In this document: one piece after another, positions 8,923 through 44,605 of the stretch
How the letters are laid out: each line of letters starts with the position of its first letter
Position numbering within the stretch: position 1 is the first letter of the stretch
IMG/VR virus record: IMGVR_UViG_3300037247_000358
Location: 1 to 50,476 of that record
DNA: 50,476 bases
Source of the DNA: a virus
Lineage: Duplodnaviria; Caudoviricetes
Strand: one strand, 5' to 3'
The notes under the pieces: generated by a model
What the model was told of the DNA's origin: nothing
Seen by the model: the letters and a program-made list of their open reading frames with translations, nothing else
The model's database searches: none
Made by a program: the position numbers and the translations under genes

Positions 8923-8939
8923 TGTTTAGAGTATAAACA
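8923..8939. promoter_or_regulatory. TGTTTA-N5-TAAACA palindrome, site 1 (parS-like)
   Basis: TGTTTAGAGTATAAACA; identical to site 4. Confidence 0.75.
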
Positions 8940-8945
8940 CTTAGG

Positions 8946-10826
8946 TCATTGACTCATCTTCCTCAACTGTCGTTGTAACATCTTGGTGTAGGTGCCCTTT
9001 TGCAAAAGATTACGCCTTCTGCGCCGTAGGCTCCGCGGGAATAACTCACGCGCTGCCAACGAGCCAGCAACAGGAACTCTACGAGTTAGCTCCCTCCCTA
9101 TGGTTTCCAAGCCGTCCTTTGAAGATAAGAGGTCGTGGGCAAGAATGAAAACATCTGAGCCAAAGACGGGGCCGAGGACAAAACTAGCCATTGGTCGAAG
9201 GCTTGGGGAAAATAGAGCATACTGCAAATCCTCAATTAGGCCGAGACTACCAACCTGTGCGAAGTTGTCAATCATACGGTCGAGCCAGAATTTCATTTGC
9301 GGCCGTTCTTTGAGGCCCTGAGGGCCACGGCGTATCAGGGTCTTGAGGTCTGCCGCAACCTCACCAACCAACGGGAACGTAAAAGCCATATAGGCCAGCG
9401 GCCTAAGTTCCCCTTCCAGGGCTGGTTTTAGTGCAAAGTCTTTGATAAACCTAGTCTGGTTGTAAGCAAATTGCTTATACATTGTCAGAACACGGAATAT
9501 CGGTTCCTTCTTCCAATAAATTGGAAGCTCCGCCACCGTGCTCCGAAACTGGGTTAGGTCGCTGACTCGTTTGCCAGCACGAAGCAGGTCACTTTCAGTT
9601 AATGCCCCACGCTTTAGCCCAGCTTCAATATCTACACCGAGGAGCCTGAGACTTCTCCTTGCAGCGCCATCCACAGGGTTCCTCAGCAGCTTAACCATCT
9701 GCTCCTCGGCGTAATGCTTCCCGACGTTAGCAGAGAAGATTCTATTGAACTTCTCAATCGGGGCAAAGCCTGTGTACCGCAACACCTTACTACCAATGCC
9801 TTCGGCCTCTACTTTAGCAAGTCTGCGAAATTCGACCAAGGATTGGTGATACACACCACCAGTACGGAGACCAAACTCCAGTGCAGAACCATAATCCGCG
9901 ATTGAATCCCGTAGTGCCTTTGCAAAGGGGCTGATACCGGCCAACACCAATGTATTCATTGGTTGTGTAGCATTAGAAATGACAGCAACACTGAGTTTTG
10001 AAAATGCTTCGAGATTCTGTACGAACACCTCCCACCCTGGCTTGCCATGGGATACTATCTGGCTGCCAGGGCCGATGCTGCGGCCGAGGAATAGCTCAGT
10101 GTAGAGACGAGCAAACATACTGTCACCACCCTGTTCTTCAACTAGGTCTAACAAGGCGTGGATGTTCTGGTCCTTAGGACCAAAGGCTCTGGCCTCCTCG
10201 ATTCTTCGGATGGTAGACACTTGATGCTCTATATCAACAGCCATATCCTGTCGCCAGCCCGGTAAATCAACTCTACGGGGGCTCTCAAGGGTATGGACTT
10301 TACGGCCAGAAACCCTAATCATGTTCAACAGGCCACGGGCCTCCGAAACCGTACTAGCCTGTCCAGTGGACATTAGGTGTTTTATTGCGTTCTGCTCTCC
10401 GTGGCCCCTCAAGAAGTCAGGACGCCACATCCTTGGAAAGTGGAAAGGCACGCGGGGGCCAACCTTGACACCTACAGCAGATGCCTCAGTGTAGAGAAGG
10501 TCATCAATGACAGTGTTAACCGAGGCAAAGTTCCTGACGGTCTGGTCCTGTGCAGCGATGCCAAAGGCTCTTTGACCAATGTACTGTTCTGTCAGTTCCA
10601 CTGAAGGGTTCAGAGAAGCAAAGCCACCACGATAGTCAGCCATACGCTTCGCAGCACGAGTCTCGTAGGTGTTCCTAGTACCTTGCAAGATAGAATCTAG
10701 CATATTGGCCGCAGGCCCATTTCTCCGAACAGCCTTGCTACCGCTTTCGATGGCATACTTTCCAACGGCAGTTGTAAAAAAGGCGTTTTTAGCCTTTAGG
10801 GCCAGGTTTAGAGCTATGCTGCCCAC
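8946..10826 (-). CDS. Probable internal virion/DNA ejection protein (626 aa)
   Basis: Large helical protein at distal end of the late operon; positional inference. Confidence 0.55.
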   Translation of the reverse strand: MGSIALNLALKAKNAFFTTAVGKYAIESGSKAVRRNGPAANMLDSILQGTRNTYETRAAKRMADYRGGFASLNPSVELTEQYIGQRAFGIAAQDQTVRNFASVNTVIDDLLYTEASAVGVKVGPRVPFHFPRMWRPDFLRGHGEQNAIKHLMSTGQASTVSEARGLLNMIRVSGRKVHTLESPRRVDLPGWRQDMAVDIEHQVSTIRRIEEARAFGPKDQNIHALLDLVEEQGGDSMFARLYTELFLGRSIGPGSQIVSHGKPGWEVFVQNLEAFSKLSVAVISNATQPMNTLVLAGISPFAKALRDSIADYGSALEFGLRTGGVYHQSLVEFRRLAKVEAEGIGSKVLRYTGFAPIEKFNRIFSANVGKHYAEEQMVKLLRNPVDGAARRSLRLLGVDIEAGLKRGALTESDLLRAGKRVSDLTQFRSTVAELPIYWKKEPIFRVLTMYKQFAYNQTRFIKDFALKPALEGELRPLAYMAFTFPLVGEVAADLKTLIRRGPQGLKERPQMKFWLDRMIDNFAQVGSLGLIEDLQYALFSPSLRPMASFVLGPVFGSDVFILAHDLLSSKDGLETIGRELTRRVPVAGSLAARELFPRSLRRRRRNLLQKGTYTKMLQRQLRKMSQ

Positions 10827-12643: not shown

Positions 12644-12647
12644 GTTA

Positions 12648-15805: not shown

Positions 15806-18433
15806 CTAGTTCGCCTCAGTCGTGGTGTTGGCTAGGGGTTGGGACACCAAAATGTAAATCCTCGCCTGCCCTGCGCTGGTATCGGCGTGGTCGCCGCCTG
15901 TGAGGTCGCACTGAATCTCTATATCCCCACTTGCTACGAGCATGAAGGGGGCAAATTTGTCCGTAGTATCAAACAGCAACGCACCCTTACCTCCGCTTGC
16001 TGTCGCATCGTGTAACTCGTACACCGTAGCGGCGGAGAAGAAATTGTCGTCCAGCGTGAGGTCGTTGGCTGAGCCTGCTGCTGTCCCGACCGAGCAGACA
16101 GCGGCTGACACTGGCCCTGTTCCTGCCCAAGCAACCACGACCGTTCCCACAACGTCGTGAATCATGGTGTTGGCTGGTAGCGTCCATAGGACGAAGTCGT
16201 CCGCCGTTGCCGCAGCAACTAAGTCGGTGTGGTCAACCTGTTTGAAAATCCAGCGGGGTTGATTTGATAAGGAACCTTCTAACGGATTGCCGACTGCTAC
16301 TACAAAAGCATCGTCTGTCTTGAGTGTGTCAGCGGCGCTACGGTAGAGGTTGGTGTCAACAGCAGAGTCTCCCGGCCCCCAACTTTGTTTCCCTCCTGCC
16401 GTGATTTGCCATCTGTTAGAGGTATCTCCTGTAACTACTGAATGAAAACCAACGTCAGTAGTCGCACTTGCCCGCTTTTGGAGACTTGTATTGGGGGAGT
16501 TAGGCAAGCGAAGAATAGCTCCGCTTCCAACCCAATCCAACGCCGCTTCTTGGTTGGGGCCAAACTCAATTCCAGATTTGTCGCGGCGGATTCGGAGACG
16601 AAGGTTGGAGCCCGTGTCGTCATAGAAATCAGAATGGGCAGTGGAGGATGGCGCTCGATACTCCGTCGCAGAAAAAGGCCCACGCCGAAGAGTGCCAAGA
16701 GATTGGAGCGCAGGGGAACCATCCTGCCGGTGGCCTTCCCAGTAGTTGTCTGAACCACTGTCGGTTATCTCGGTAGAGAAAGCCCCAATCACGCCAATGT
16801 TGAGAAACCTATTGTGGGTAGAGTTCGCGTCGGCGGTTATGAGTTTGACGGCGGAGGCACTGAACGCCGGAGTGCCAACACGAGAGAGCCTGTCTTGAAA
16901 TGTCCCGTCGGTCGTGTTGACTAATTCAAGGCCGTTTCCGACTCCCGAACCAGCGTCGTTGGGTGTGCCCAAACTAAAACCTCTAAAAACTGGGTATTCG
17001 CAGTTCGTGCACTTGACTTGGGGTTTTTCTCCTCTACCTTCCGTTTGCCAATTCGTGAAGGAAAAGTCAATGGAGTTTATAAATTCATAACAAATAGCGT
17101 TGCGGTTGCCGTCGCAGAAAGATACATCAAACTCACTGCCAACAAGACGACCCTGAAAGAGTTGGGAAAATCCACCACGCCGGATACTAGAGTAAATATT
17201 GGTCAGGGAAGACGAATGGAATCCAGAAGCATCGAACGTGCTGAAGTCTGCTGTATCGGTCTTGAGGCAGATAGTATCGAAGTTCCATGCTCCACCGGCA
17301 CCAGGGTCGCAGTAGAGGCGATTCACCGTGGAGAATTTGATATTCCCTTCGAGGTAGATGAAAGTGTCGTGAAACTCGTTGTCACCCTCGACCAGTATGT
17401 CCTCAAGGTCAATCTGTAAGAGTTCAAACAGAATTTCGGCCTGAGTGGACTTGAGTGTGGGTTTGTAGTTAATTGCCATCGTTCCCGTAACGCTCGGGAG
17501 CTTGAAAGTGAGATTACTAATGGATTGATGCCATGCCCGTGTAGCAGATACTTCCCATTCTACTAATGCTCGATTGGTTGGGAAGGTAGGCCCACCTGTG
17601 ATACGAGCGCAACGAAGGCTTACACCTACCAAATGGACTATATTAGTTGGTGTCAACCCTGTGCGGGGCAGGATTAGGGGAGACGAAATTAAGTAGTTGC
17701 CACAAGGAAAGGACACCGGTGTTCCCTGAATACCAGCGGACCCTATAACCTTGGCCGCGTCAATCGCAGCCTGAATCGCTGCTGTGTCATCAGTTATTCC
17801 ATCCCCTAGCGCCCCAAAACTCTTTACTGAAATAGGGTTTGTTCCATTTGCAATGCAGTTAGTCATTCCAGAAAGACGCAAACGGATACAATCAAGGTCG
17901 GTGTTATACCAAACATCGCCTTCTACCAGCGTCATTGTTCCTTCTTGTGCTGTGGTACGTTCTGTCAGACGAAGTTGACCAACTCCAGAGACACCAACAG
18001 TTCCACAAAAAGTAATCAGCCTGGTTGTTGTGTCGTAGTAAAACTCCCCCACCGTACAACCAGATGGCACTGCTGTAGAACCAGTCAACAGGTAACTACT
18101 GGAGCTTGCCAAATGTACATCTTCGATGGTGGTATCAGCCAACCCAGGGACAGATATTAAAATGTCGTATACCCCTGGAATAGCGTAAAATGTATAATTC
18201 CCAAGGGAATCAACAGCAAATGGGTTAGACAACGACCCACCAACGGCCGTGGAGAAAATTCCACCTGGGGGTTTTGTGGTTGTATTAGGCAAAAACACAG
18301 TTATTGCAGCAGTCGTAATCGGCGTGCCAGTAGAACTAAGAACTACATCTCTGTGAGCCGTGAGACTTAGTTGAGCATCCGCTGTGGATGACAAGAGCAG
18401 CAAAGTGAGCAAAAACAGAAGCAGCTTCCTCAT
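15806..18433 (-). CDS. Tailspike/receptor-binding protein with pectate-lyase-like beta-helix and N-terminal signal peptide
   Basis: SVKSFGALGDGITDDTAAIQAAIDAA...FPCGNYLISSPL; anchor-like NPFAVDSLGNYTFYA..GVYDI; N-terminus MRKLLLFLLTLLLLSSTADA. Confidence 0.85.
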   Translation of the reverse strand: MRKLLLFLLTLLLLSSTADAQLSLTAHRDVVLSSTGTPITTAAITVFLPNTTTKPPGGIFSTAVGGSLSNPFAVDSLGNYTFYAIPGVYDILISVPGLADTTIEDVHLASSSSYLLTGSTAVPSGCTVGEFYYDTTTRLITFCGTVGVSGVGQLRLTERTTAQEGTMTLVEGDVWYNTDLDCIRLRLSGMTNCIANGTNPISVKSFGALGDGITDDTAAIQAAIDAAKVIGSAGIQGTPVSFPCGNYLISSPLILPRTGLTPTNIVHLVGVSLRCARITGGPTFPTNRALVEWEVSATRAWHQSISNLTFKLPSVTGTMAINYKPTLKSTQAEILFELLQIDLEDILVEGDNEFHDTFIYLEGNIKFSTVNRLYCDPGAGGAWNFDTICLKTDTADFSTFDASGFHSSSLTNIYSSIRRGGFSQLFQGRLVGSEFDVSFCDGNRNAICYEFINSIDFSFTNWQTEGRGEKPQVKCTNCEYPVFRGFSLGTPNDAGSGVGNGLELVNTTDGTFQDRLSRVGTPAFSASAVKLITADANSTHNRFLNIGVIGAFSTEITDSGSDNYWEGHRQDGSPALQSLGTLRRGPFSATEYRAPSSTAHSDFYDDTGSNLRLRIRRDKSGIEFGPNQEAALDWVGSGAILRLPNSPNTSLQKRASATTDVGFHSVVTGDTSNRWQITAGGKQSWGPGDSAVDTNLYRSAADTLKTDDAFVVAVGNPLEGSLSNQPRWIFKQVDHTDLVAAATADDFVLWTLPANTMIHDVVGTVVVAWAGTGPVSAAVCSVGTAAGSANDLTLDDNFFSAATVYELHDATASGGKGALLFDTTDKFAPFMLVASGDIEIQCDLTGGDHADTSAGQARIYILVSQPLANTTTEAN

Positions 18434-18447: not shown

Positions 18448-18464
18448 TGTTTACACTATAAACA
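18448..18464. promoter_or_regulatory. TGTTTA-N5-TAAACA palindrome, site 2 (parS-like)
   Basis: AACTGTTTA-CACTA-TAAACAGTT, 9-bp arms spanning 18445..18467. Confidence 0.75.
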
Positions 18465-18837
18465 GTTTGATAGCTATGGTTCCAACAGTGGCTTTTAGTG
18501 TTATTTGACTAACTGTCGCAGCCACAGTCCCGTCGTAAACATCCACAGCAGCAGCCTTGACCATTACTAAATAACCTGCTGGTAATCTGCCAAGACCATG
18601 AGTCACTGTGAAATCGGTATTTGGTGTGCCAGGGGTTGTCACAGAAACCCAAGTGCCTTCAATGTTCTCGGAGTCAGTACCGTCACCGAATCCGATTCTG
18701 CCGTTCAAGGCCCTGGCAATCTCCTCATGTTGGCGTTTCAGGGTCAGTAGTAAGTCACGAAACCACGCCTCGTCGTAGCGGCTGGGGACTCTAACCTCCA
18801 ACGTAGGTGCAACTCTACCCACGCTTCTCACCCGCAA
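18451..18837 (-). CDS. Small tail protein
   Basis: VTHGLGRLP motif; lies between nozzle and tailspike. Confidence 0.55.
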   Translation of the reverse strand: MRVRSVGRVAPTLEVRVPSRYDEAWFRDLLLTLKRQHEEIARALNGRIGFGDGTDSENIEGTWVSVTTPGTPNTDFTVTHGLGRLPAGYLVMVKAAAVDVYDGTVAATVSQITLKATVGTIAIKLFIV

Positions 18838-26461: not shown

Positions 26462-26478
26462 TGTTTACCTCGTAAACA
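26462..26478. promoter_or_regulatory. TGTTTA-N5-TAAACA palindrome, site 3 (parS-like)
   Basis: TGTTTACCTCGTAAACA followed by GTTAGCCAA, as at site 4; overlaps an RBS. Confidence 0.75.
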
Positions 26479-26511: not shown

Positions 26512-27465
26512 TTAAGGCCCGTTGGAACCCCAGGTTCCCAGCCAGGAAGTAGCACCTGAACTAAACCGCATGAACGAAATTTGCTTGATGCTCCGGGTGT
26601 CGAAATCATCAGCAAAGTCCTCGTCCAGCGCCTTACGGGTAAAGTGCTTCAGTTGGTGGGACTCCTTATCACAGACCATGAACCAGGCAGACTGACTTGT
26701 GAAGTAGTGGCAGATAAAGTAATTCAAATCCTCTTTGATGAGGGCATTGATTTCGTTATCAGCCGTGAAGGGCCTATGTGGCGAGCCCAAAATCTCTCGC
26801 GCAATCCACTTCAACTCAGGTGGAATGACAAGGTACTTTGGCTTCAAAACCACCGGCAGCCCTTGGCTGTCAATCAACCGCTCAAACTGGTTAATTGAAA
26901 GCTGGATGGAGGTGAAACTCAGGTCAACATCCGTCGCAGGGCGGTTGGGGTAAGTACCAACCGCACCAATGACGTTAGTCAGGCCCGGGCCGACGCTAGT
27001 CGCCGTTGTACCCCCTAGCAATGGGTGTTGGTTGTTGAAGAGACTCACACCATCGGTGGTTGTGACAGTGGTAAAGCCGAGGTTAAAGATGTTCCATGTC
27101 TGCTGTTCCTTCGTGAAATGCGCGGAACGAGCCAGTGCCTTTGGCACCTGCATGATGATGTTGTACTGGTCATCTTCATACAACTCCCACGAGGTGCGAA
27201 CACCAAGAGCATAGGTAGTATGCAAATACCGCTTGGTACCACCCTGGATAGCATCTTGGTAGGTCACCGACTCCGCTTCGGGTTTTTCTGGCATCGGGCC
27301 CAGGCCGGAAAACTCCACTTCATCTTCGTATGCCTTGTCACTGTCAGGCATATTGAAGATGTGAGAGTATTCCTCATCACGCTGGAGCAAATCCAGCCAG
27401 TGTACGAAGTTGTGATGGAGGCCAGGGGCCATCAACTGCGCGAACTGCCCACGTACCATTGTCAT
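26512..27465 (-). CDS. Major capsid protein (HK97 fold, Mu gpT-like family)
   Basis: SDKAYE......GLG.M.EK.E...V.Y, Y.H.TYALG...S.E..EDD.Y, DGVSLF...HP, PK.L..PPEL...A..IL.S. Confidence 0.9.
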   Translation of the reverse strand: MTMVRGQFAQLMAPGLHHNFVHWLDLLQRDEEYSHIFNMPDSDKAYEDEVEFSGLGPMPEKPEAESVTYQDAIQGGTKRYLHTTYALGVRTSWELYEDDQYNIIMQVPKALARSAHFTKEQQTWNIFNLGFTTVTTTDGVSLFNNQHPLLGGTTATSVGPGLTNVIGAVGTYPNRPATDVDLSFTSIQLSINQFERLIDSQGLPVVLKPKYLVIPPELKWIAREILGSPHRPFTADNEINALIKEDLNYFICHYFTSQSAWFMVCDKESHQLKHFTRKALDEDFADDFDTRSIKQISFMRFSSGATSWLGTWGSNGP

Positions 27466-29383: not shown

Positions 29384-29668
29384 TTAAGGTAATGCTGCCT
29401 CTGCGGCTGCTAAAGTTTTCTTTTCAAAATCCTTCTGGTCGCTCATCTGCTTTTCGATGCCCTTTAGGTCCCTTTCCATGTGGATGATACCATCCAACAC
29501 GGCCAAGGCCCCTTGGGCACGATGGATAAGGATTGGATTACTGGAAGTCATTAGTATGTTCTGCTCCTTAGCAATAAGCTCCTCAATCCACCTATTGAAT
29601 ACCCTCGCCCCCGGCTGTGCCACCCACGCCAGGAGCTTGTGGCGGTTGTCCACCAGAACTGGTCTCAC
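29384..29668 (-). CDS. Small portal-adjacent protein (Bbp19-like)
   Basis: IHRAQGALAVL helix; directly after portal. Confidence 0.6.
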   Translation of the reverse strand: MRPVLVDNRHKLLAWVAQPGARVFNRWIEELIAKEQNILMTSSNPILIHRAQGALAVLDGIIHMERDLKGIEKQMSDQKDFEKKTLAAAEAALP

Positions 29669-31424
29669 GTTTCACCTCCGGTATGAGCCTGTCTGTCTCA
29701 CTTCGTCCGAAATTGCGAAGAACATCCTTCATAAGAGCATTAGAAGCCTGGACGGCTTCCCCAAGATACTGACGGACTTCCTCTGGAATCATCACGTTAG
29801 AGGCACTTTGCAGCAAGGAAGCCACGGTTTGATAATGACGGGTCATCAAACCAACCAACATAATGTCATTTTGCTTTTCAACCTCACGGTTGACACTAGC
29901 AGTTGAGGCATAGATAGGTAACCCCATCTTGCCAGAGGCCATAAGCTCTAGGGCAGCCTTTATGAATTGGGCTTTCTCACCAAATTGGTCCACCCTATCA
30001 CCAACACCAAAATGGGCATATACACGGGTGATGATACGTCCTAGTTTGGTGTGTGCATACCTCATATCTGTAACGTTCAAATCCGTCCGTGTGTTGCTCT
30101 CCTGAAGCATTGACAACGTACCCATGGCCGTGTACACACCACGACGACCGTGCATAACACCAGCACCATAGCCCTGTTGGTGCGGAGCTACTCCTGACAG
30201 CCTTTCTGCAAGGTCAAGTGTCATCCTCTCATCTTCGATAGTTACCTCACTCAATTCACCGTGAACGAGAGGCTCAATTTCGTCCTTTTCTGCTGGCAGT
30301 ATCGCAGACGGGTAAATACGATAGCCCTGATGCAGTTTGCTGTCAGGATTAGCCCGCCAGATACGAGTATTAGCAATTGTCATGTTGTCCCGACGTTGGT
30401 TGTGGATAATTGACAACTCGTTCTGGAAATGGGACAAACGCTCACAGAAACCAAGACCATGGAACTGGTCATCACGGTAGTAGAGCCGAGCCGCAACAAA
30501 AGGCTCCATATTCTCCGGATAGAAGTTGTAAACTGCCCGGAGAATTGTGTTAGACTCAAGGTGGTAGGAGATTATTGTTCTGACAAGGTGGCCATTTATG
30601 AAAGCCTTGTACCAACACTCCCAAATGTCCCATTCCTTGTAGCCATAACCCACTGAACTTCGAGCGCCTGTGTCAGTTTCCTTTCTCTGCTGGGTACTAA
30701 TCGGGAACGTGCGGGTTGGTTTGCCTAAAACGTAGTTTACCTTGTCCTGGGCATAGACCCCATGAAACGCCCGCTCCTTTAGTTCAAACTCCTGAATTCT
30801 ACGACGGTGTATCTTAATGTTTGCGGCCTCAAGAGTCTTTGACGCTGGTGGAATGAAAAAGTCCTCAAAAGCTAGTTTCTCCGGACGAGGACCAGCGTAA
30901 ATGGTGGTGGGAAGATAGGAAAAATTGCCCTGACCATCCCCAGCAACAAAATCCTCCCAGACTTTTTCGTATGGGGACTTGACTATGGAAGTGCCGAATT
31001 TGATTGCCTCACCAAACCACTCATGATAAACACGATAAAGGTCAAGTTCTGTTGGTTCGATGCCAACATATTCCAGAAACTCCTCAACTGCCTCTCTAAG
31101 CTCTTCCCCAACACCCTGGTGGGTTCCAAGCAGCTTTGTTACCCATAGGGGCTTCGTTTTGAAGACGTAGGACATAACTCTGGCAAGCAGTGTGTCAGAG
31201 TGAATAGCAATGACAGGAACCACCAAGTTACTTGCGTTATAGAACGGAAACTCCCGAATTTTCTCCAGAGGCGTCGCTTCGTAGAATTTGCGCCATTTAC
31301 CAATTTTAGTTTGATATAACACGGAATACCCTGAAATCAGGCCGAGGATGTGTCTCCGAATATCCCTCTTGAGATACTCCTCGACCTGAGGGGTCAGGGT
31401 GACGCGAATGGGTGCTTCGGGCAT
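29592..31424 (-). CDS. Portal protein
   Basis: 610 aa between TerL and scaffold; KFGTSIVK, FHGLGFCE.L...Q.E....HNQRRDN, RLSGV, TA. Confidence 0.88.
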   Translation of the reverse strand: MPEAPIRVTLTPQVEEYLKRDIRRHILGLISGYSVLYQTKIGKWRKFYEATPLEKIREFPFYNASNLVVPVIAIHSDTLLARVMSYVFKTKPLWVTKLLGTHQGVGEELREAVEEFLEYVGIEPTELDLYRVYHEWFGEAIKFGTSIVKSPYEKVWEDFVAGDGQGNFSYLPTTIYAGPRPEKLAFEDFFIPPASKTLEAANIKIHRRRIQEFELKERAFHGVYAQDKVNYVLGKPTRTFPISTQQRKETDTGARSSVGYGYKEWDIWECWYKAFINGHLVRTIISYHLESNTILRAVYNFYPENMEPFVAARLYYRDDQFHGLGFCERLSHFQNELSIIHNQRRDNMTIANTRIWRANPDSKLHQGYRIYPSAILPAEKDEIEPLVHGELSEVTIEDERMTLDLAERLSGVAPHQQGYGAGVMHGRRGVYTAMGTLSMLQESNTRTDLNVTDMRYAHTKLGRIITRVYAHFGVGDRVDQFGEKAQFIKAALELMASGKMGLPIYASTASVNREVEKQNDIMLVGLMTRHYQTVASLLQSASNVMIPEEVRQYLGEAVQASNALMKDVLRNFGRSETDRLIPEVKRETSSGGQPPQAPGVGGTAGGEGIQ

Positions 31425-32755: not shown

Positions 32756-34420
32756 TTACTGATACCCCGCGTTCACCTGTCGCATCCTCATCCGATTAGT
32801 TTTCAGCATTGCAATATGCTGGGTGTAACTCATCGGCGACTTCATCATCTGCGGAATATACGCCAACGCATCGAGAAGGTCAACATACTTTCCCTTCGGG
32901 AACGTGGTGTACTCCTCAAGGAAACTTTGATGGCGGCGCTGGATGAAGAAACGCTCCTGCTCAAAAATCGGAGAGAGGGAGCGAATGCGCCACTCCTTGC
33001 GTCGTGTTGGAGTGCCGTCTGGCGCATCCACCTCCCCCTTTAGGTCAACAATCCGGACGGTGTTACCTTCAATTTGATTTCTGTAGCGAAGGTGGTATGC
33101 GAGATACTGTTGGCCAGCAATGGCTTCGACACCAAACTTGCCCAAACGCCACTTCTTAGCAAGCTCATAAATCTTGGCAATAAACGAATCGTAGCTGGCG
33201 TGCATAGCCCATGAGTCTAGGAGATAATAGAGGTTATCCTGTGACAGCCCAACTACCGTGATTGCGTGGCGACAGCGACCACTTGCTGCGTTGCCAGCGT
33301 GATTTGGGTCCACTGTCATAGCAAGGCTCAAGTGATTGATTTTCAAGTCCTTGCGTACAAGCCCATTTTTAACTTCGTGGACTATATAGGTGTCTCCAGT
33401 TGCATCTGTGCGATATGAGTAATAACTAAGCCAACTCTCCTTGAAATCAGCGTCCTCCGGCGCCACGGGGTTGTTTAAGAACTGACAAGAGAACATATAA
33501 GAACCAAGCCGCCGCTTCCAACGAAGCAGTTTCTCCTCAGAAAACTCTTCGGGGAAAATTGCCTTGTCAGGTGGATGGACAGAACAGCAACCACCCAAAG
33601 CACTATGGTTCACCAGACGAAACCAAGGTTCCTCTTCGCGGATGTGGGAGTTCAAATCATGGAATGACCACCGATTGCCAACAACCAATTCACTGTTGTC
33701 GTGGAGCCTGTCCTCGGTCTCAAATGCACCGATTAGCAATTGGTGGTAGTTGATAGTCTTTTCCATTTCCGACGCGGATTCAAGAGCCTTGCGGCCAACA
33801 AGGTCGTCCTGAATTGCTTTGTGGTAGTGCCGAGACTGTAAAGCACCACCTACACCAAGGAAGTCAAAGGTTCCTTCACCGTGGGCGGCTCCGGCGCTGC
33901 CTTTGGGACGACGTATGTGAAGGGATTGGTTTGTCCAGACACAAGAAGAGTCTGGTAAAGTTTCAGGAAACAACCCCCGGTAGAGATAATTAGACTCATA
34001 GTGATACCGGATGCGCTTGCCGAGAGTGGCAGCGTTAGTGATGTTCTCACTGACAAGGAGAAATCGCCCGTTTGTATCATGGATTTTCCTCATCCACCTG
34101 ATAAATTCATCAGAATAGCCAAACTGTTGGAGAGCGTCTGCATCTTGTTGGGTAAAGGGGAGTGCCCACCACATAGGCAGACCCTCAGAACAGATAGTGG
34201 ACTTGAAGTGGTCCCGTGGCAACTCATAAACATCTTTGATGAAGGAGCGTTCCAAGGAATTGCAGATTGGAAGATGTAGGTGGTCTGTCAACCTACGACG
34301 CCGAAGGCCAATTTTTATGAAGTAGTAGAGACTACCAAGACAATTAAGCCGGACCAACTGCCGCTTCTCCGCTGGAGAGGCAGCTGAACTAATTGACAGT
34401 GGTACGAACTTTATTTCCAT
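32756..34420 (-). CDS. terL: Terminase large subunit
   Basis: ELPRDHFKST (Walker A), IQDDLV (Walker B), VVGNRW...D, FSCQFLNNP, RNase-H-like TVDPN, FPKGKYVDLLDALA. Confidence 0.92.
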   Translation of the reverse strand: MEIKFVPLSISSAASPAEKRQLVRLNCLGSLYYFIKIGLRRRRLTDHLHLPICNSLERSFIKDVYELPRDHFKSTICSEGLPMWWALPFTQQDADALQQFGYSDEFIRWMRKIHDTNGRFLLVSENITNAATLGKRIRYHYESNYLYRGLFPETLPDSSCVWTNQSLHIRRPKGSAGAAHGEGTFDFLGVGGALQSRHYHKAIQDDLVGRKALESASEMEKTINYHQLLIGAFETEDRLHDNSELVVGNRWSFHDLNSHIREEEPWFRLVNHSALGGCCSVHPPDKAIFPEEFSEEKLLRWKRRLGSYMFSCQFLNNPVAPEDADFKESWLSYYSYRTDATGDTYIVHEVKNGLVRKDLKINHLSLAMTVDPNHAGNAASGRCRHAITVVGLSQDNLYYLLDSWAMHASYDSFIAKIYELAKKWRLGKFGVEAIAGQQYLAYHLRYRNQIEGNTVRIVDLKGEVDAPDGTPTRRKEWRIRSLSPIFEQERFFIQRRHQSFLEEYTTFPKGKYVDLLDALAYIPQMMKSPMSYTQHIAMLKTNRMRMRQVNAGYQ

Positions 34421-35222: not shown

Positions 35223-35717
35223 CTACTGAACTACCTTCGTAGAGGTTTTTGCCTTGGCTACAGCACCGATGGTATTTGCAACTTGGTTGCCATCCTGTAG
35301 GGCGTTGTCAAGCACAAGTGGGGACATATCGGCTGGTACATACCCATCTTCTTCAGGACGCCTGACAACCAATGCCTTGTCAGGGTCAAGGGCGATGATT
35401 TCCTTGGCCGCGACGATGGAGGCACGAGTGTCACGGCGTTGGGTCACTGCGTCTAGTAGTGCTCTCACTGCCGCGGGGACGCCCGGACGAAGTGCGTTGC
35501 GGATTTCTTCCACCTTGCCAGCCATGGCCTCATCCATTTTGGTAAGAGTACCTGTGAGGATGCACTCTTCAGCATCTTTGTACTCTGGTAGAGCTAGAAT
35601 ACGTGAAAGGCCAGGTCGGGAAAGTCCTAGTAACTCTGCAATACGACCATCGGAGATAGCACCGACGACACGCAGGCGGGCTATTTGCTCAAGTTTAATT
35701 CTTACTTTTGGGGTCAC
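35223..35717 (-). CDS. Probable terminase small subunit
   Basis: N-terminal HTH (SDGRIAELLGLSRPGLSRIL), AVRALLD...AAKEII oligomerisation helices; upstream of TerL. Confidence 0.65.
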   Translation of the reverse strand: MTPKVRIKLEQIARLRVVGAISDGRIAELLGLSRPGLSRILALPEYKDAEECILTGTLTKMDEAMAGKVEEIRNALRPGVPAAVRALLDAVTQRRDTRASIVAAKEIIALDPDKALVVRRPEEDGYVPADMSPLVLDNALQDGNQVANTIGAVAKAKTSTKVVQ

Positions 35718-35956: not shown

Positions 35957-36181
35957 TTAGTCTCCCTCCGTAACTACTTGCGGCTCGAAGAAAGTGTGAA
36001 AGGCCCGCACTAGCGGTGAAACCACGGGAGTGGGGGGGTGGCCCACTTTGGAGAACTGAGGAGGATTAATCCTTTCAGCAGCAACACTGCCAGAGGCGGA
36101 CCTTTCAACGGTCGGACCAAGATTCCGAGAAGCACAGCCAGCTTCCTGTCGGGGGACGAAGTTGGTACACTTCTCGCTCAT
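35957..36181 (-). CDS. Hypothetical protein, first gene of the late arm (start moved to ATG 36181)
   Basis: The longer ORF start lies inside the promoter. Confidence 0.4.
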   Translation of the reverse strand: MSEKCTNFVPRQEAGCASRNLGPTVERSASGSVAAERINPPQFSKVGHPPTPVVSPLVRAFHTFFEPQVVTEGD

Positions 36182-36190
36182 AGTGTCCAC

Positions 36191-36218
36191 ATTATAGCAC
36201 ATCCGTCAAAATCGTCAA
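36191..36218 (-). promoter_or_regulatory. Sigma70-type promoter driving the late arm
   Basis: TTGACG-N16-TATAAT with extended TG. Confidence 0.75.
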
Positions 36219-36309
36219 GGAGTATTTCATGTTTTGAATCAGTAGGATACAAACACAAAACGCATTGCGTTTGGGATTAACTGCCAGTGGCCACGGGCTC
36301 TGCACACCA

Positions 36310-36495
36310 ACTTCGTTACCGAAAGGACTTCGTTACCAAGCTACGCTTCGCAGCCTTCTACGAAACTGCCAAACAGCACCATGTTCGCTTTTTCGTCGCT
36401 AGATGAAGTGTTTAGAGTATAAACAGTTAGCCAAGCTGCGCTCTTCGGCTTTCTGTGAAACGGCTAAAGGCTAGTACGTTACTGGGCTAAAGGCC
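36310..36495 (+). repeat. Short direct and degenerate repeats in the divergent intergenic region
   Basis: ACTTCGTTACC at 36310 and 36327; ~40-bp degenerate pair CCAAGCTrCGCT...GAAAC.GC.AAA at 36336 and 36431; GGCTAAAGGC twice. Confidence 0.6.
36409..36425. promoter_or_regulatory. TGTTTA-N5-TAAACA palindrome, site 4 (parS-like)
   Basis: TGTTTAGAGTATAAACA-GTTAGCCAA. Confidence 0.75.
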
Positions 36496-36814
36496 ACTTT
36501 GGTACTGGCGAAGCCAAACGCAGGAATGGAAAAAATTATGTGAGCTGCCTTCATGCCGGGCCGGGGCGTTTGAGTTTTGTGCCTCGTCACACTATATATG
36601 AGTACGCTAGAGACAAGGCGTGCAGCAAGGGCCTCACGTTGGGATACTCACCGCTCCACCCTGCTGCGGTTCACCGCTACGCGACAACGTGCTGCGACTG
36701 TCAGTGGTGACCACCCAAGCGCGCAGTTACTAGACCGTCACATCTGTTGGGATGTGCGCCGCAGTTGTAGAGTAGTAAGTCACAGGTGTACAAATCCAAA
36801 CAGAGGTGCCAACC

Positions 36815-37141
36815 ATGGCGTTCAAGACACTCAAGCCCATCACGGCAGAGGACGTGAAAGGGGTCAATGGACTCAACCTCACCATCGGGGCCGCCTTGAC
36901 TGTGTTAATCCACAGACTCAAGGACACCCACTTCCAACAGAACACCGTGGAGTACGTGGCTGAGAATGCCCTTATCACGGGTATCAAGGCCATTGACAAC
37001 TCCAAGGGGTACTCCGAGGATATGCTCCGACTCAAGGGGTTCAGAACGGAGCTGGAGGCTGACCCCTCCATCGCCCAAGACCCGAAGAAGATGGCACGGT
37101 TGATGCAGAAGTACCGCATCGGCGCGTCCGTCCAGAGCTGA
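36815..37141 (+). CDS. Hypothetical early protein
   Basis: GAGGT RBS before ATG 36815. Confidence 0.7.
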   Translation: MAFKTLKPITAEDVKGVNGLNLTIGAALTVLIHRLKDTHFQQNTVEYVAENALITGIKAIDNSKGYSEDMLRLKGFRTELEADPSIAQDPKKMARLMQKYRIGASVQS

Positions 37142-40186: not shown

Positions 40187-40217
40187 CAACACCAAACCGT
40201 TCACAGAGTAAACACTT

Positions 40218-40454
40218 ATGTTAATGGTCTGTCGGCGCTGCGGTGACAGGAAGCCGCTATGCAGCGGTTGTTCCAAGCCAACCCCTAAACTCAGGGTGAA
40301 CGGAGCAGGGTTTATCAGTTGCACCAACCAAAACTGCCACAGGTACCAAAAGATTGTGCCAGAGGCCGAAGGCGGAGTCAGGGACATAATTTGTCTATCC
40401 TGCGTCACAGAACAAGCTAGTCAAGTTACTGAAAACAAAGAAGAAGCGGAGTAG
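40218..40454 (+). CDS. Cys-rich double Zn-finger protein
   Basis: CRRC, CSGC, C-x4-C, CLSC. Confidence 0.55.
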   Translation: MLMVCRRCGDRKPLCSGCSKPTPKLRVNGAGFISCTNQNCHRYQKIVPEAEGGVRDIICLSCVTEQASQVTENKEEAE

Positions 40455-40472
40455 CAACTCGGCAGAAACTTC

Positions 40473-40500
40473 TTGACACAGCTTCGCTATAAGCTATAAT
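40473..40500 (+). promoter_or_regulatory. Consensus sigma70 promoter
   Basis: TTGACA-N16-TATAAT. Confidence 0.85.
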
Positions 40501-40547: not shown

Positions 40548-40991
40548 ATGAAAACCCGTGCAGTTACCTACGTAGTGACAGGCGAAGGCGATGACCGTTC
40601 AATCGCCACCGAAAAGGCGTTTGACAAACAGGTAAAGGCCGCAAAGGAAGCCGGAGGCGAAGAGCCCACTTTCAGTGCTGTCCAAACCTTCCAGGTCTAC
40701 GAGGTGGAAAACACCGAAGAGTTCCTGGAACTCGTCACCAATGAAGAAGAGCAGAAGAACATCATCAACCGTGCCTTGGTTCTCAAGCAGCAACAGGGGG
40801 CCCGGGCAATCCTGCTTGCGGACAACTTCGAGCAGGTTGAGGGCACTTACGACCTCAGAGAACTCTGCGGAGAACTCCGAGAGCGGCGTGCCGCAACACC
40901 GGCAGAGAAGGCACTCAGCGCCTTGGGCAAGCTGTCGCCAGAGGAACTGGCCGCAGTGATGCAGCAGTTCCAAGCCGCATCGGCGGGGTAG
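40548..40991 (+). CDS. Acidic hypothetical protein, probably highly expressed
   Basis: Own consensus promoter, AGGAGG RBS and downstream terminator. Confidence 0.8.
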   Translation: MKTRAVTYVVTGEGDDRSIATEKAFDKQVKAAKEAGGEEPTFSAVQTFQVYEVENTEEFLELVTNEEEQKNIINRALVLKQQQGARAILLADNFEQVEGTYDLRELCGELRERRAATPAEKALSALGKLSPEELAAVMQQFQAASAG

Positions 40992-41047
40992 TATTAACTA
41001 CCAACCCGACTAAGCTGCAAATTGCCGGGTGGTGTAGTCTAGCGACT

Positions 41048-41068
41048 ATGCCATCCGGCATTTTTGTT
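41048..41068 (+). terminator. Possible intrinsic terminator
   Basis: ATGCC-ATCC-GGCAT followed by a T-run. Confidence 0.45.
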
Positions 41069-41146: not shown

Positions 41147-41176
41147 TTGACAGGACGAGTGACTCTGTGCTATCTT
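41147..41176 (+). promoter_or_regulatory. Sigma70-type promoter
   Basis: TTGACA-N18-TATCTT with extended TG. Confidence 0.65.
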
Positions 41177-41213
41177 GGCAGAACAGCACGCTTTAGTGTG
41201 GAGGATAAGAACT

Positions 41214-41666
41214 TTGTCGCATAAGTGTAGAATCTGGTACGACACCGACGTAAGTGCCTATCGGTTCTCCTGTTCCTACAGCCGGAACTTCATTGAAGCA
41301 ATAAAAGCCCTAATACCTGCCAGTGACCGCGCATATGATGACCAAACCAAAATATGGCTGTTCTCCGAACGGTTCTTCGACGCCGTAGCCGGTTTGGCCA
41401 AGAAGGTTTACGGGCCTAGCTACGTTTCTATTCTAACCCGACAACAAGCTGAGGCCAATACCCAAAAAGGTATTGCTAGAGGCATCAACGGCAAAATCGA
41501 AGACACTTTCATAGTCTTTGTCAAGCTGCTGCCATTCAATGCCGCGGCCAAGGCGTACCGGCAAGCTGCCATCGAGATGCACCCTGACAGGGGCGGCAAC
41601 CCAGAGCAAATGGCCCGGCTGAATGAGGTTTGGAGTAGAATCAAGAAGGAGTTTTACAAACAATGA
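41214..41666 (+). CDS. J-domain (DnaJ-like) protein with HARP-like N-terminal domain
   Basis: KAYRQAAIEMHPDRGG.PEQMARLNE.W; N-terminal YSRNFIEAIK..IP...RAYD..TKIW; GGAGG RBS before TTG 41214. Confidence 0.85.
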   Translation: MSHKCRIWYDTDVSAYRFSCSYSRNFIEAIKALIPASDRAYDDQTKIWLFSERFFDAVAGLAKKVYGPSYVSILTRQQAEANTQKGIARGINGKIEDTFIVFVKLLPFNAAAKAYRQAAIEMHPDRGGNPEQMARLNEVWSRIKKEFYKQ

Positions 41667-41902
41667 CCAGAATAAACACCGAAAGAATACCTCAACCATA
41701 CCGCAACAGGCTCATGGTCGACACAGGCAAGCTGTACCGAATCTACACCTTTCACATCAGGGTGTTACGATATTTCATGGCCCGCGACGAAATGAATGCC
41801 CTACTGCATGAGGATGCCCCGAAGTGGTCTCCACTTACAGAAACAGCCGAAATTATGAAGGTGGAACTGGAAGAACTCCTTAGGGAGGGGGACAAAAAGT
41901 GA
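41663..41902 (+). CDS. Hypothetical protein (79 aa)
   Basis: ATGA/GTGA coupling on both sides. Confidence 0.6.
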   Translation: MTRINTERIPQPYRNRLMVDTGKLYRIYTFHIRVLRYFMARDEMNALLHEDAPKWSPLTETAEIMKVELEELLREGDKK

Positions 41903-42609
41903 CCGACAAACTAGACAAACCAAAGGCTGCACTGCCCACAACAGTACACCGAATCAAACTACCTGGCCTGCACAGCCGTCTCTACAAATCACAACAGAGC
42001 ATTACCAACAACCCCCCGGAATCCATGCCCAACCGCATCTGCATCCTACCGGATTGTTCTGGCTCCATGGGTAGTAGCGTCAGTGATAACCCAAACAAAT
42101 CGAAGATGGACTACCTAAAAGAGGCCGTTGAAAGTTTCGGTGAAAACTGCAAGTGGTCAGAGACCTCCGTCGCCGTAGTCTCCTTCCCATCCGATGTAAC
42201 AGAGTTACCACTCACCAACCAACAGGGTATGTTCGTCGCAGGCATCACAACCCTGAAAGTTTCCGGTGACACTCCGATGGGACATTCAATGGCCTTTGCC
42301 ATTGAAACTGTGCCAATGACAAGGGCCATCATCATCAGTGACGGCGAAGCCACTGACACCCCGCTACCGAGTGAAACTGCACGCCAGTATGCAGAGGCAA
42401 AGATTCCCATTGACTGTGTTCACATTGGGTACGACCAAAGGGGAGAGGGGCTACTACAGGAGATTGCCAAGGTTACTGGGGGGAAGTATATTAAATTTGA
42501 CAACGTGGCAAACTTTGCGAAGGCACTCAAGTATCTGACACCAGCGTACCGAGCGTTGCTGGAAGCACCAAGTGCGGCGGAAATTCTTGGGGCAAAGGAG
42601 GTGAAATAG
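41899..42609 (+). CDS. von Willebrand factor A domain protein
   Basis: MIDAS DCSGSM, GDTPM, IIISDGE, LLQEIA..TGGKY. Confidence 0.9.
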   Translation: MTDKLDKPKAALPTTVHRIKLPGLHSRLYKSQQSITNNPPESMPNRICILPDCSGSMGSSVSDNPNKSKMDYLKEAVESFGENCKWSETSVAVVSFPSDVTELPLTNQQGMFVAGITTLKVSGDTPMGHSMAFAIETVPMTRAIIISDGEATDTPLPSETARQYAEAKIPIDCVHIGYDQRGEGLLQEIAKVTGGKYIKFDNVANFAKALKYLTPAYRALLEAPSAAEILGAKEVK

Positions 42610-42610
42610 C

Positions 42611-42817: not shown

Positions 42818-43215
42818 ACGGAGAACAGCTACATCTATCACCGGCAGAGTCCGGTGATTTGTACGTAACCAAACAACACGTTGCTGGAGTAATTACATCC
42901 GGCGGACGCCCAATCAAGATTCACGTCCGTGGTAAAGCTAAGCAACGCTACAAACGCCATGTAACTGGCCGCAAGGCTCCGTATGGCACACAGACGAAGC
43001 ACCACTACATGCTGTTACACTGTCCCAGGTGCGGACGAAGGATACTTAGCATTTACCGAATACGGCACACTTATAAATCAATCCACAATTGGTTGAGAAA
43101 AGCCTTCAACGCGGAGAGGTACTTCAAACGGCCAACCTTGTCGTTGAGTTGGTACACCGACAACAAGAAAAGACTTCTTTACGATACAAGCCTATTTGAG
43201 GGAGGTAATACATGA
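42814..43215 (+). CDS. Basic hypothetical protein with CPRC motif (start moved to MNGEQ)
   Basis: GGAGG RBS; ATGA coupling. Confidence 0.6.
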   Translation: MNGEQLHLSPAESGDLYVTKQHVAGVITSGGRPIKIHVRGKAKQRYKRHVTGRKAPYGTQTKHHYMLLHCPRCGRRILSIYRIRHTYKSIHNWLRKAFNAERYFKRPTLSLSWYTDNKKRLLYDTSLFEGGNT

Positions 43216-43496
43216 CCGTCTGGATAATCAAACGGCTACGAGTACAAGCCCTTGCAGGGTGGTTGTTGGTATGTATTCTAGCAACCATGCTGTATGCAGA
43301 ACGGAGAGTAAATGCAGGTCTGGTGGTTGAAGCATTCAGCATCCTAACCGTTGCTGAGAGCAATGCAGCTATGCTCACCGTGAGCAACACTACACTGGCA
43401 GAGTGCAATGAATACTTTGACCAGTACATCTCCCATATGAGAGCGGAGGGAGAATGGTTGGAGGTAATAGCAGAGGCTACGGACGTGACTAAATGA
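43212..43496 (+). CDS. Single-TM membrane protein directly upstream of FtsK
   Basis: ALAGWLLVCILATMLYA; ATGA coupling to both neighbours. Confidence 0.6.
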   Translation: MTVWIIKRLRVQALAGWLLVCILATMLYAERRVNAGLVVEAFSILTVAESNAAMLTVSNTTLAECNEYFDQYISHMRAEGEWLEVIAEATDVTK

Positions 43497-44605
43497 CCCC
43501 CGAACAAATCAACGTAGTTGCCAAGGTAACCCTGAAACTACATGAGCTTGGCTTCGAGGCTGAGTTCCAACCGCCAATATCCATTGGCCCAATCATTTCA
43601 GTCTATCGTTACCTGCCAAAGGGCAGGACGAAGGTCACAAACATCGAAAGCCTGGCGGCAGACTTTGCAGTTACACTTGGTGTTGAGGATGTCTTTGTCA
43701 AGCGGCTGCCTGGCGAGACCTCTGTAGGAGTTTACGTTCCCAACAAAGACCGCAAGTGGGTCCCATGGACACAAATTGTGAACGAAGTCTGGGCACACAG
43801 AGCCAAAGTCCCCGTGCCGCTGGGTTTCGGTGTAACTCACCTTGGTGAACCGTTCGTTGAAGACTTGACAGCGTTGCCACACCTGCTGATAGCCGGAAGT
43901 ACCGGCTCTGGCAAATCCATACTACTAAGCGCCATGATTGCCAGTATTGTTTACAGTGTAAACAGTTCGGATGTTAAGTTTGTACTCAGTGACAGCAAAC
44001 ACGGTGCAGAGTTTGGCTACTTTGCAGGGTCCCCACACCTACTGTTTGAGCCTGCCACTAGCGTTTATCAAACCATGGAGCAACTGGATTGGATTCTCTC
44101 CGAGCTAGACGACAGGATGAAATCCATAGCCAAAGCAAGTTGTAGGAACATCAAGGAATACCACGAGCGTGGCTTCAAGATGCCATTCATCGTAATTGTC
44201 CTCGATGAACTAGCAGATTTGCTGTCGTTCCGTGTTGGCAAAAGGAACGAAAAGGCAGCTGAAGAGAAACTTCAGAAGATTGTGCAGAAAAGCCGAGCCA
44301 CTGGCATCCACATGATTGCTGCTACGCAGAGACCAGATGTAAAGGTGGTTAGTGGAACGATTAAAGCCAACTTCCCTGCCAGGCTGAGCCTGCGACTACC
44401 AACCAGTGCAGACAGTAAAACAGTGCTCGGCACCGGCGGAGCCGAGCATTTGCTTAGCAAGGGAGACATGCTATTCATTAGTCCAAACAGGCCAGGAATG
44501 TTGAGGCTCCACGCCCCGTGGGTGGAACTGGATGATATAAAGGCCGCTGTGGACATGAGTGTTCAGAGGGAAAAACTACAACAGGGGGTGTCAGATGGCA
44601 ACTGA
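43493..44605 (+). CDS. FtsK/SpoIIIE-family DNA translocase, alpha+beta motor domains only
   Basis: GPIISVY (alpha domain), PHLLIAGSTGSGKS, IVIVLDELADL, KSRATGIHMIAATQRP, GAEHLL.KGDML. Confidence 0.92.
   Translation: MTPEQINVVAKVTLKLHELGFEAEFQPPISIGPIISVYRYLPKGRTKVTNIESLAADFAVTLGVEDVFVKRLPGETSVGVYVPNKDRKWVPWTQIVNEVWAHRAKVPVPLGFGVTHLGEPFVEDLTALPHLLIAGSTGSGKSILLSAMIASIVYSVNSSDVKFVLSDSKHGAEFGYFAGSPHLLFEPATSVYQTMEQLDWILSELDDRMKSIAKASCRNIKEYHERGFKMPFIVIVLDELADLLSFRVGKRNEKAAEEKLQKIVQKSRATGIHMIAATQRPDVKVVSGTIKANFPARLSLRLPTSADSKTVLGTGGAEHLLSKGDMLFISPNRPGMLRLHAPWVELDDIKAAVDMSVQREKLQQGVSDGN
43948..43964. promoter_or_regulatory. TGTTTA-N5-TAAACA palindrome, site 5 (parS-like), inside the FtsK CDS
   Basis: TGTTTACAGTGTAAACA-GTTCGGA; 23/24 identical to the reverse complement of 18441..18464. 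Confidence 0.75.

Follow-up and report, generated by a model that had tools for sequence, protein, structure and literature searches.

Plasmid RK2 reportedly carries 12 OB sites. From such sites KorB, a ParB-family CTP clamp, silences promoters lying between 4 bp and more than 1 kb away, as described in PMC11790492, and the Cluster A mycobacteriophages are reported in PMC6550527 to disperse a single site, the stoperator, over early and late operons, mostly off promoters. ParB-CTPase proteins also occur in phages, where a 2025 catalogue records them as widespread, often fused to N6_N4 methyltransferases, and of unknown role (PMC12704722), and one phage ParB-like protein has been described as an activator of a thymine dioxygenase (PMC13229309); a literature search turned up no DNA target for the phage ParB-CTPase proteins in the parts of these sources that were available. 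Here we analysed the IMG/VR virus record IMGVR_UViG_3300037247_000358 (Duplodnaviria; Caudoviricetes), a whole virus record that ends in direct terminal repeats and whose full 50,476 nucleotides are called the window below, and a 17-bp palindrome, TGTTTA-N5-TAAACA, that is dispersed over it. Our reading, to which we give a probability of about 0.5, is that these palindromes are KorB/OB-like sites, that is, parS/OB-like double-stranded DNA elements that the phage's own ParB-family protein would bind.

The likeness to KorB/OB lies in the general arrangement, with palindromic sites dispersed over a mobile genome of ~50-60 kb, both proximal and distal to promoters, and a ParB-family reader, which in the phage is predicted; the OB core TTTAGCGGCTAAA moreover has the same TTTA-N5-TAAA geometry (PMC11790492). 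The copy at 36409, for instance, lies ~190 bp from the -35 element of a leftward promoter, on its upstream side, and is also upstream of a conserved block that we took by eye for a rightward promoter. OB sites conserve a central GCSGC; the phage sites have a variable centre and a fixed outer TG/CA. KorB works with the ParA partner IncC and a KorA lock, whereas Pfam-type scans of 85 open reading frames (ORFs) of the window turned up neither of them (no ParA/CbiA-type and no TrfB/KorA match), nor any integrase, repressor, ribbon-helix-helix (RHH), TetR, MarR or other helix-turn-helix (HTH) family protein, and the place of the KorB C-terminal domain is taken in the phage protein by a methylase or by nothing. 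The proposal of the first-pass annotation that the palindromes are operators of an RHH protein thus found no such protein to attach to in these scans.

The exact palindrome has five matches in the 50.3-kb genome, starting at 8923, 18448, 26462, 36409 and 43948, compared with a mean of 0.01 in dinucleotide shuffles, none of 100 of which reached five. Allowing up to two mismatches added one weaker copy at 40198 (CGTTCA..TAAACA), bringing the total to six where shuffles averaged 2.02, and the reversed pattern had no match in the window. Among all palindromes with exact arms of 5 or 6 bases and spacers of 0-12 bases, this was the only one with more than four copies (Markov simulations gave a maximum of 3), and five of the ten TGTTTA hexamers of the genome lie inside the sites. 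Flanking sequence is shared too: the extended arm TAAACAGTT occurs four times, always at a site (0.20 expected), GTTAGCCAA follows sites 26462 and 36409, and GTTCGGA follows 43948 on the + strand and 18448 on the - strand. Non-coding DNA makes up 7.5% of the genome (3,776 nt), and four of the five exact copies lie in or across it, including the stop-codon copy at 18448, which ends 14 nt ahead of the ATG of the tail protein gene. Because the terminal repeat is 127 bp long, the genome closes into a circle of 50,349 bp, around which the gaps between exact copies are 9525, 8014, 9947, 7539 and 15324 bp. The first-pass annotation had already reported the five copies and the weak one, the gaps, the shared flanks and the placement of one copy inside an FtsK-like gene and of another over a stop codon, and all of this was borne out.

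Close relatives of the window were not found by single-protein queries and came from alignment queries, and at the DNA level the window had no similarity to cultured phages (G000 is the window, other G numbers are related genomes, and L numbers are loci or contigs). The exact motif was present in only one of the 22 relatives found via the terminase (TerL); it looked absent from relatives because each lineage carries its own allele of the same geometry. Related phages have 3-7 dispersed copies each of 17-bp palindromes of the form TGTnnn-N5-nnnACA, the alleles being TGTTTA, TGTTCA, TGTTAA, TGTTGC/T, TGTCAA and, in a cultured Desulfofustis phage, TGTCCC. Exact matches to YGTTYA-N5-TRAACR, which also covers the weak copy at 40198 (its half-site CGTTCA is found again at 5827 and 48443 of G016), number six in the window, three in G016, two in G030, four each in G045 and G048, two in the 11.8-kb G014 and one each in G001, G018 and G036, against an expectation of 0.05 per 50 kb. 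G045 and G048 use TGTTCA..TGAACA throughout, G039 has 6-7 copies of TGTCAA..TTGACA, G044 has seven of TGTTG..CAACA, TGTTAA..TTAACA occurs four times in G041 and three times each in G034 and G037, and G036 holds a mixture of alleles. G009 retains only three relics with one mismatch, two of them syntenic (the FtsK codons and the after-capsid junction), and no YGTTYA-N5-TRAACR family site was found in G038 or G023.

The positions recur together with the geometry. A family site marks the junction between the capsid gene and the 26205-26459 homologue in G000, G014, G018, G044 and G045/G048 (a one-mismatch relic in G009), the end of the late operon, between the last tail gene and a conserved small basic ORF, in G000, G016, G034, G036, G039, G041 and G044 (a half-site in G030), and the divergent control region in G000, G001, G014, G039, G044 and G045/G048. 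At the start of the ParB-like gene a site overlaps the start itself in G016 and lies 2 nt upstream in G044 and 22 nt upstream in G036, and G039 has one ~490 bp upstream of this gene; in G034 (L288) a site lies within the fused gene, at the ParB/methyltransferase domain junction (record position 45630), and resembles a former intergenic site. Over nine genomes, 20 of 40 sites fall in ORFs of at least 120 aa, compared with 33.5 expected for random positions; sites favour gene junctions, though some lie in genes. Homologues of the small basic ORF, whose product may be a packaged DNA-binding protein, are present in G016, G030, G034, G036 and G041, and a family site or half-site precedes each of them. 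The palindromes are therefore a family with one geometry (6-N5-6, 17 bp, TGT..ACA), lineage-specific alleles and recurring positions. The first-pass annotation had looked to close relatives for the motif, and what they hold is rarely the exact form and repeatedly a variant of the same geometry at the same junctions.

A pattern scan of viral contigs matched at least 116 stretches, mostly single chance matches, and a match in G004, G003, L066 and L024, inside a gene and ~375 bp from a 31%-identical capsid gene, was set aside as probably chance. An apparently unrelated 28.7-kb viral contig, L047, carries four tandem copies of TGTTTA-N5-TAAACAGTT with 38-bp spacing (8312-8445). Other palindromes are repeated in G009 (L155-L157; 12 copies of AACC-N3-GGTT, ~1 expected) and in G038 (L292-L294; seven copies of GCACC-N3-GGTGC), many of them inside genes.

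The even spacing of the copies raises the alternative that they are physical or replicative landmarks, such as loop anchors, secondary origins or priming or packaging signals, for which spacing would matter more than neighbours. The probability of a minimum gap at least as large among randomly placed points is 0.0039 for the five of the window (0.05 when 40198 is counted), 0.014 for G045, 0.086 for G039 and 0.116 for G044, and the asymmetry of the flanks holds one genome orientation irrespective of gene strand, at 7/7 sites in G039 and 3/3 in G000. However, these four values are not independent because syntenic sites are common to the genomes, one site per module would also produce even spacing, the flank orientation in G044 is mixed (4:1, by eye), and no initiator or iteron context accompanies the sites. 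We therefore regard landmarks as a very unlikely explanation.

Selection on the DNA itself can be seen at the copy inside the FtsK-like gene. Among 69 loci found via the FtsK-like protein, four have the exact motif, all at the same gene position, 60 have other residues and no motif, and five more could not be parsed. G000, G016 and G028-G030 encode I-V-Y-x-V-N with identical arm codons (ATT GTT TAY nnn GTA AAC), and vary in the spacer codon and at synonymous sites on either side. Gene-wide, the same codon is used at 34 of 167 three-way-conserved residues (20%), compared with four of four arm codons in the three lineages (probability ~0.0016), indicating that the DNA sequence is under selection. 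Synonymous-site conservation at 43948, which the first-pass annotation had named as informative, was thus found.

Copies within one genome share the same arms and differ freely in the five central bases, and we favour a double-stranded DNA element read by a symmetric dimer, in which the arm sequence and not its pairing is recognised. An alternative would be an RNA hairpin, serving as a translational operator or as a processing or stability signal around the ribosome-binding site of the downstream gene. This draws on a recurring layout in which the spacer resembles a Shine-Dalgarno sequence and the start codon follows 2-3 nt after the palindrome, as at 26462 on the - strand (CGAGG, 2 nt before the ATG of 26205-26459), 40198 on the + strand (CAGAG) and G045 22494 on the - strand (AGAGG); at the after-capsid junction of G001 a different 6-5-6 palindrome has a GGAGG in its loop, followed after 3 nt by an ATG, and every lineage allele preserves pairing. 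However, invariant stems with variable loops within a genome are the opposite of known RNA operators, the hairpins are predicted to be weak (-2.2 to -7.6 kcal/mol, with 40198 on the + strand not folding at -0.1 kcal/mol), and changes in imperfect copies disrupt a pair roughly as frequently as they leave a wobble (wobble-compatible to pair-breaking ~5:6, tallied by eye). In addition, the copy at 36409 and its equivalents lie between divergent promoters, as the G001 site does, and are therefore probably untranscribed, and the G014 copy before the 26205 homologue has a spacer without a Shine-Dalgarno sequence. An RNA hairpin consequently seems to us improbable, and we take the layout with the Shine-Dalgarno sequence in the spacer for an operator squeezed into a tiny intergenic gap, where an RNA role may still come in.

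The candidate reader is the product of 1756-3054, a core gene of the group, in which an N6/N4 DNA methyltransferase (residues ~232-426) follows the ParB-like part (Pfam: ParB_N 1.7e-10, N6_N4_Mtase 6e-19). Its translation contains GERRLRA and EENLRRKEL, conserved in 12 homologues, which we set against Box II (GxxRxxA) and Box III (ENxxRxxL) of nucleotide-dependent clamps. A phmmer search of the PDB returned Noc (7NG0, 8e-11), C. crescentus ParB (6T1F), the Spo0J proteins of H. pylori and T. thermophilus (1VZ0 among the Spo0J entries) and M. xanthus ParB, and a model of residues 1-233 built from 12 homologues, with a predicted local distance difference test (pLDDT) score of 75.5, matched Noc, the ParB-parS complex, the complex of Noc with its binding site NBS and KorB (8QA9, 8QA8) over 190-237 columns covering both domains. 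The phage does have a protein of the ParB/Noc/KorB fold, and its N-terminal 230 residues are the only recognisable site-specific DNA-binding fold in the core genome besides that of 35223-35717. The gene is a single ParB/methylase fusion in G000, G009, G016, G030, G034, G037, G038, G041 and G044, and in G036, G039 and G045 a stand-alone ParB-like protein of ~200 aa lacks the methylase and 5-7 sites are still present.

Pairing of this protein with the sites is suggested at the sequence level by the adjacency of sites to its gene, by their co-occurrence in the Desulfofustis phage and by concordance between the putative recognition helix and the allele: QTSKDIELA goes with GTTAA (four genomes), TSN with GTCAA, VSQ with GTTCA and TSR with GTTGC. 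Two other candidate readers were rejected. The HTH protein 35223-35717, probably a small terminase (its neighbours in the Atlas are Sigma70_r4/GerE/HTH_23/Terminase_5-like), has a helix that does not follow the alleles and is absent from the Desulfofustis phage, and 36806-37141, unrecognised by the Atlas, was found only in G001 besides the window. A presence/absence search for a motif-linked gene returned only 8946-10826 and antisense ORFs and is confounded by phylogeny.

Several observations weigh against the ParB-family protein as the reader. The match between helix and allele follows phylogeny and is therefore not independent evidence; G009 has the ParB-methylase with the same TSKDL helix but only its three relic sites, G038 carries the ParB-like gene without family sites, and sites adjoin the ParB-like gene no more strongly than they do 26205 or the small ORF at the end of the late operon. 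The HTH segment alone matches no solved ParB by sequence, and Pfam reported no ParB HTH in it. The phage protein lacks the C-terminal dimerisation domain of canonical ParB or has another part in its place, so that clamp formation is putative. Many sites hug ribosome-binding sites, which is not known of ParB proteins. Finally, the operator OA of RK2 (oligo TGTTTAGCTAAACA) has arms identical to those of the phage and is read, according to PMC11790492, by the small HTH repressor KorA and not by a ParB protein, and canonical parS, as discussed below, is built differently.

Cultured phages served as an independent test. The nearest cultured carrier of the ParB-methylase, Desulfofustis phage LS06-2018-MD01, has the same order of ParB-methylase (E 2e-45 to the window protein), polymerase and primase with different structural genes, and it contains six dispersed TGTCCC-N5-GGGACA palindromes and one variant, compared with a simulation maximum of 2. 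These are again 17 bp long with TGT..ACA ends and lie at gene junctions, including the one upstream of its terminase genes. Among the four candidate DNA-binding proteins tested, the ParB-like protein alone is common to the window and this phage, which had no match at E<=1 to the rival readers 26205, 35223 and 45740, and its annotated 'transcriptional regulator', which adjoins one site, has no homologue in the window. On the opposite side, the second cultured carrier of the gene, Microcystis phage Mel-JY34, contains CGTCGA-N5-TCGACG in just two copies, one lying 66 bp ahead of the ParB-methylase gene, and its support for a ParB reader is weak at best.

That a ParB-family protein might be involved had been anticipated in the first-pass annotation, in the form of a Vibrio parS2-type centromere, or of decoy sites for a host ParB, implying plasmid-like segregation or titration of that ParB. 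The phage shares with canonical ParB-parS and Noc-NBS the protein fold and N-domain motifs and palindromic sites of 16-17 bp, and the outer pentamers TGTTT/AAACA match canonical parS arms; the suggested echo of parS holds for this part, the phage arm beginning TGTT(T/C) as the parS arms GTT(T/C)CAC do (PMC5961200). It fails for the remainder, which counts against a ParB reader in general, since canonical parS is a 16-bp site of adjacent 8-base arms (PMC5961200) and the phage site has 17 bp, a free 5-bp centre and conserved outer bases. With Vibrio parS2 the phage site has in common that it is an AT-rich palindrome around an odd centre, but not which positions are conserved: according to PMC3688505, all 10 functional parS2 sites of V. 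cholerae keep the half-site TGTAAA, and while the copy at 43948 does fit TTTACA-N-TGTAAA with both halves, as had been proposed, 18448 has one half and 8923, 26462 and 36409 have none. Inner bases critical in parS2 thus vary and the outer TGTTTA/TAAACA is invariant, and only one of the five sites has the half-site in both arms.

The prophage-plasmid N15 shows that four inverted-repeat sites can make up a phage centromere (PMC7205306). Unlike canonical ParB, however, the phage protein has no ParA partner and no C-terminal dimerisation domain, its sites are unclustered, and the ParA-binding motif (L/F/I)G(K/R)G(L/F/I), a pattern given in PMC12704722, was not seen by eye in its N-terminus. The centromere sites of N15 are themselves said to be dispersed. 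Vibrio has a ParA2/ParB2 pair, whereas the sole ParB-like protein of the phage is the methylase fusion and no ParA, integrase or repressor emerged from the scans. A conserved host ParB, moreover, does not explain alleles that differ between related phages. The palindromes are thus not a ParA-driven partition centromere, and a parS2-type or host-ParB role is the least probable of the alternatives, close to discounted; what stands of the original intuition is a ParB-family site, now the leading reading, transferred to a phage protein without a partition partner whose binding is putative.

A different reader is possible, if doubtful, and remains the main rival: the sites could be operators for another dimeric sequence-specific regulator whose action at gene junctions would be local, that of a repressor or roadblock, comparable to stoperators or the P1 C1 operators, with the Zn-ribbon proteins 26205-26459 and 40218-40454, a KorA-like HTH protein or a host transcription factor as candidates. 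The depletion of sites from long ORFs supports it, sites abut 26205 homologues in G000, G014 and G018, and the arms of OA are those of the phage; the spacer of OA is 2 bp instead of 5 (PMC11790492), so that its half-sites stand ~100 degrees apart on the helix relative to those of the phage. A 23-bp form, AACTGTTTA-N5-TAAACAGTT, occurs in 39 bacterial contigs, and among eight high-GC actinobacterial matches examined it adjoins TetR genes in three loci (two of the Arthrobacter group, one Streptomyces) and MarR genes in three Thermoleophilaceae loci, all Pfam-confirmed. Such neighbours mark the palindrome as a normal type of operator, one within reach of an ordinary HTH repressor, which is why a second reader stays in contention. 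The actinobacterial loci themselves (L245, L262, L265, L247, L253, L275, L276 and L269) are intergenic, pairing TetR with an ABC transporter in Arthrobacter, Paenarthrobacter and Streptomyces and MarR with glyoxalase/cupin genes in Thermoleophilaceae; one operator sequence is thus common to two regulator families in Actinobacteria.

Stoperators are likewise dispersed sites with a lineage-specific consensus, one that changes from lineage to lineage in step with the binding protein encoded by the phage (PMC6550527, PMC9283540). Unlike the palindromic sites described here, 3-7 per genome in phages where no repressor or integrase was found in the window, they are asymmetric, monomer-bound and oriented with transcription, number 20-35 per genome and belong, with an immunity repressor, to temperate phages. 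Against a different regulator speak the lack of HTH, RHH, TetR, MarR and KorA-like families in the scans, the finding that no G000 protein besides core genes tracks the motif, and the Desulfofustis phage, which has the palindrome family without homologues of 26205, 35223 and 45740; a host factor would in addition need to change specificity between closely related phages such as G036 and G039. Among familiar regulators, Fis, PhoP, TyrR, LexA and NtcA are not known to have sites that fit in both spacing and symmetry.

Placement right past stop codons, right before start codons and at module borders could also indicate a lineage-specific promoter or a factor-dependent terminator at the ends of transcription units. 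The arms look like -35 hexamers (TTGACA in G039, TTAACA in G034), and the end-of-operon copy of G044 is followed by a hairpin resembling an intrinsic terminator. However, no -10 hexamer was seen by eye 16-18 nt from any arm inspected, on which ground a sigma70 promoter was rejected, and a promoter scan placed the canonical sigma70-type promoters elsewhere, at 40473 (12/12), 38026 and 45518 (11/12 each) on the + strand and at 36218 (11/12) on the - strand. Start codons 2-16 nt from the sites are too near for a -35 element or an activator site, which also disposes of a P2 Ogr or Mu C-type activator geometry, the AT stems are weak and lack a U-tract, and a palindromic promoter would be unusual. 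Promoter or terminator function is in our view as improbable as the hairpin.

If the ParB-family protein is the reader, a dimer of it would settle on each 17-bp palindrome, might bind nucleotide and slide, and would, like KorB of RK2, influence the DNA around it. The action could be to silence or insulate transcription at the junctions that bear sites, to deliver the fused methylase, or both, and joint divergence of site sequence and protein recognition surface would account for the separate allele of each phage lineage; the function may be local transcriptional control or methylase delivery. A more specific and rather unlikely version would make the sites loading stations for a ParB clamp carrying the DNA methyltransferase, which would load at the palindromes, close upon nucleotide binding and slide a few kb both ways while methylating. 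It is similarly speculative that 5-7 roughly even stations would cover a 45-50 kb genome and so provide self-targeted, processive anti-restriction methylation, and equally doubtful that lineages with a stand-alone ParB-like protein would keep only the regulatory half. As for the dioxygenase-linked phage ParB, PMC13229309 describes it as having no obvious DNA-binding domain, and the window protein has one.

The window is organised in two blocks (Table 1), early and replication genes on the + strand (~36.8-50.4 kb and 0-8.5 kb) and structural, late genes on the - strand (36.2 to 8.7 kb). The strong sigma70-like late promoter at 36218-36191 (-) reads TTGACG-16-TATAAT with a TG and overlaps the annotated start of ORF 35957-36202, and an internal ATG of this ORF ~9 nt past the -10 suggests that the first late transcript is leaderless or near-leaderless. 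In the divergent control region, ACTTCGTTAC(C) direct repeats at 36300-36345 are maybe a second regulatory or iteron-like motif, and similar repeats lie in the same region of G001 (L126, ~1050-1470). A terminator-like hairpin, a 17-bp stem followed by a T-run, is found at 41023-41060 (+), 3' of gene 40548-40991, and genes of a host-interaction type include a Cpn10/GroES-like protein, a weak DnaJ-like J-domain, a vWA-like protein and two RyR-domain proteins.

Table 1. Palindrome copies, the candidate reader and other features of the window
Feature	Position	Strand	Context
Copy 1, TGTTTA-GAGTA-TAAACA	8923..8939		6 nt past stop of 8946-10826 (-); 16 nt upstream of GTG of ORF 8703-8906
Copy 2, 9-base arms AACTGTTTA..TAAACAGTT	18448..18464		Overlaps last 4 codons and stop of ORF 18451-18837
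Copy 3	26462..26478		52-bp gap between capsid gene 26512-27465 (-) and Zn-ribbon gene 26205-26459 (-)
Copy 4	36409..36425		603-bp divergent intergenic region between late (-) and early (+) blocks
Copy 5	43948..43964		Inside FtsK/SpoIIIE-like gene, codons I-V-Y-S-V-N
Weak copy, CGTTCA-CAGAG-TAAACA	40198..40214		Ends 3 nt before ATG of Zn-ribbon ORF 40218-40454 (+)
Candidate reader, ParB_N + N6_N4 methylase fusion	1756..3054	+	Early/replication block; ParB-CTPase N domain and helical DNA-binding domain, residues ~1-205
Zn-ribbon ORF, rival candidate reader	26205-26459	-	Core gene of group; next after copy 3
Small basic Gly/Ser/Lys-rich ORF	8703-8906	-	Very end of late operon, next after copy 1
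FtsK/SpoIIIE-like ATPase	43493-44605	+	Early/replication block
PD-(D/E)XK nuclease; AAA_24 ATPase		+	Early/replication block
Family-A DNA polymerase	4018-6588	+
DUF3987 protein	6471-7664	+
Large terminase	32756-34420	-
Portal	29592-31424	-
Mu-gpT-like capsid protein	26512-27465	-
Tail protein gene	15806-18433	-
Last large late gene (tail)	8946-10826	-
Host-interaction-type ORFs	7661-8071, 41175-41666, 41899-42609, 49513-50298, 50181-365

For the phage ParB-methylase fusions, these palindromes offer candidate cognate sites in six alleles across sediment, marine and cultured phages, with which the question of what the fusions do becomes directly approachable by binding assays, chromatin immunoprecipitation (ChIP) and methylome analysis. 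If the reading is true, KorB-style long-range control by a ParB clamp would extend from plasmids to tailed phages without visible lysogeny or partition genes, and the lineage-specific alleles would constitute a natural set of orthogonal protein/site pairs.

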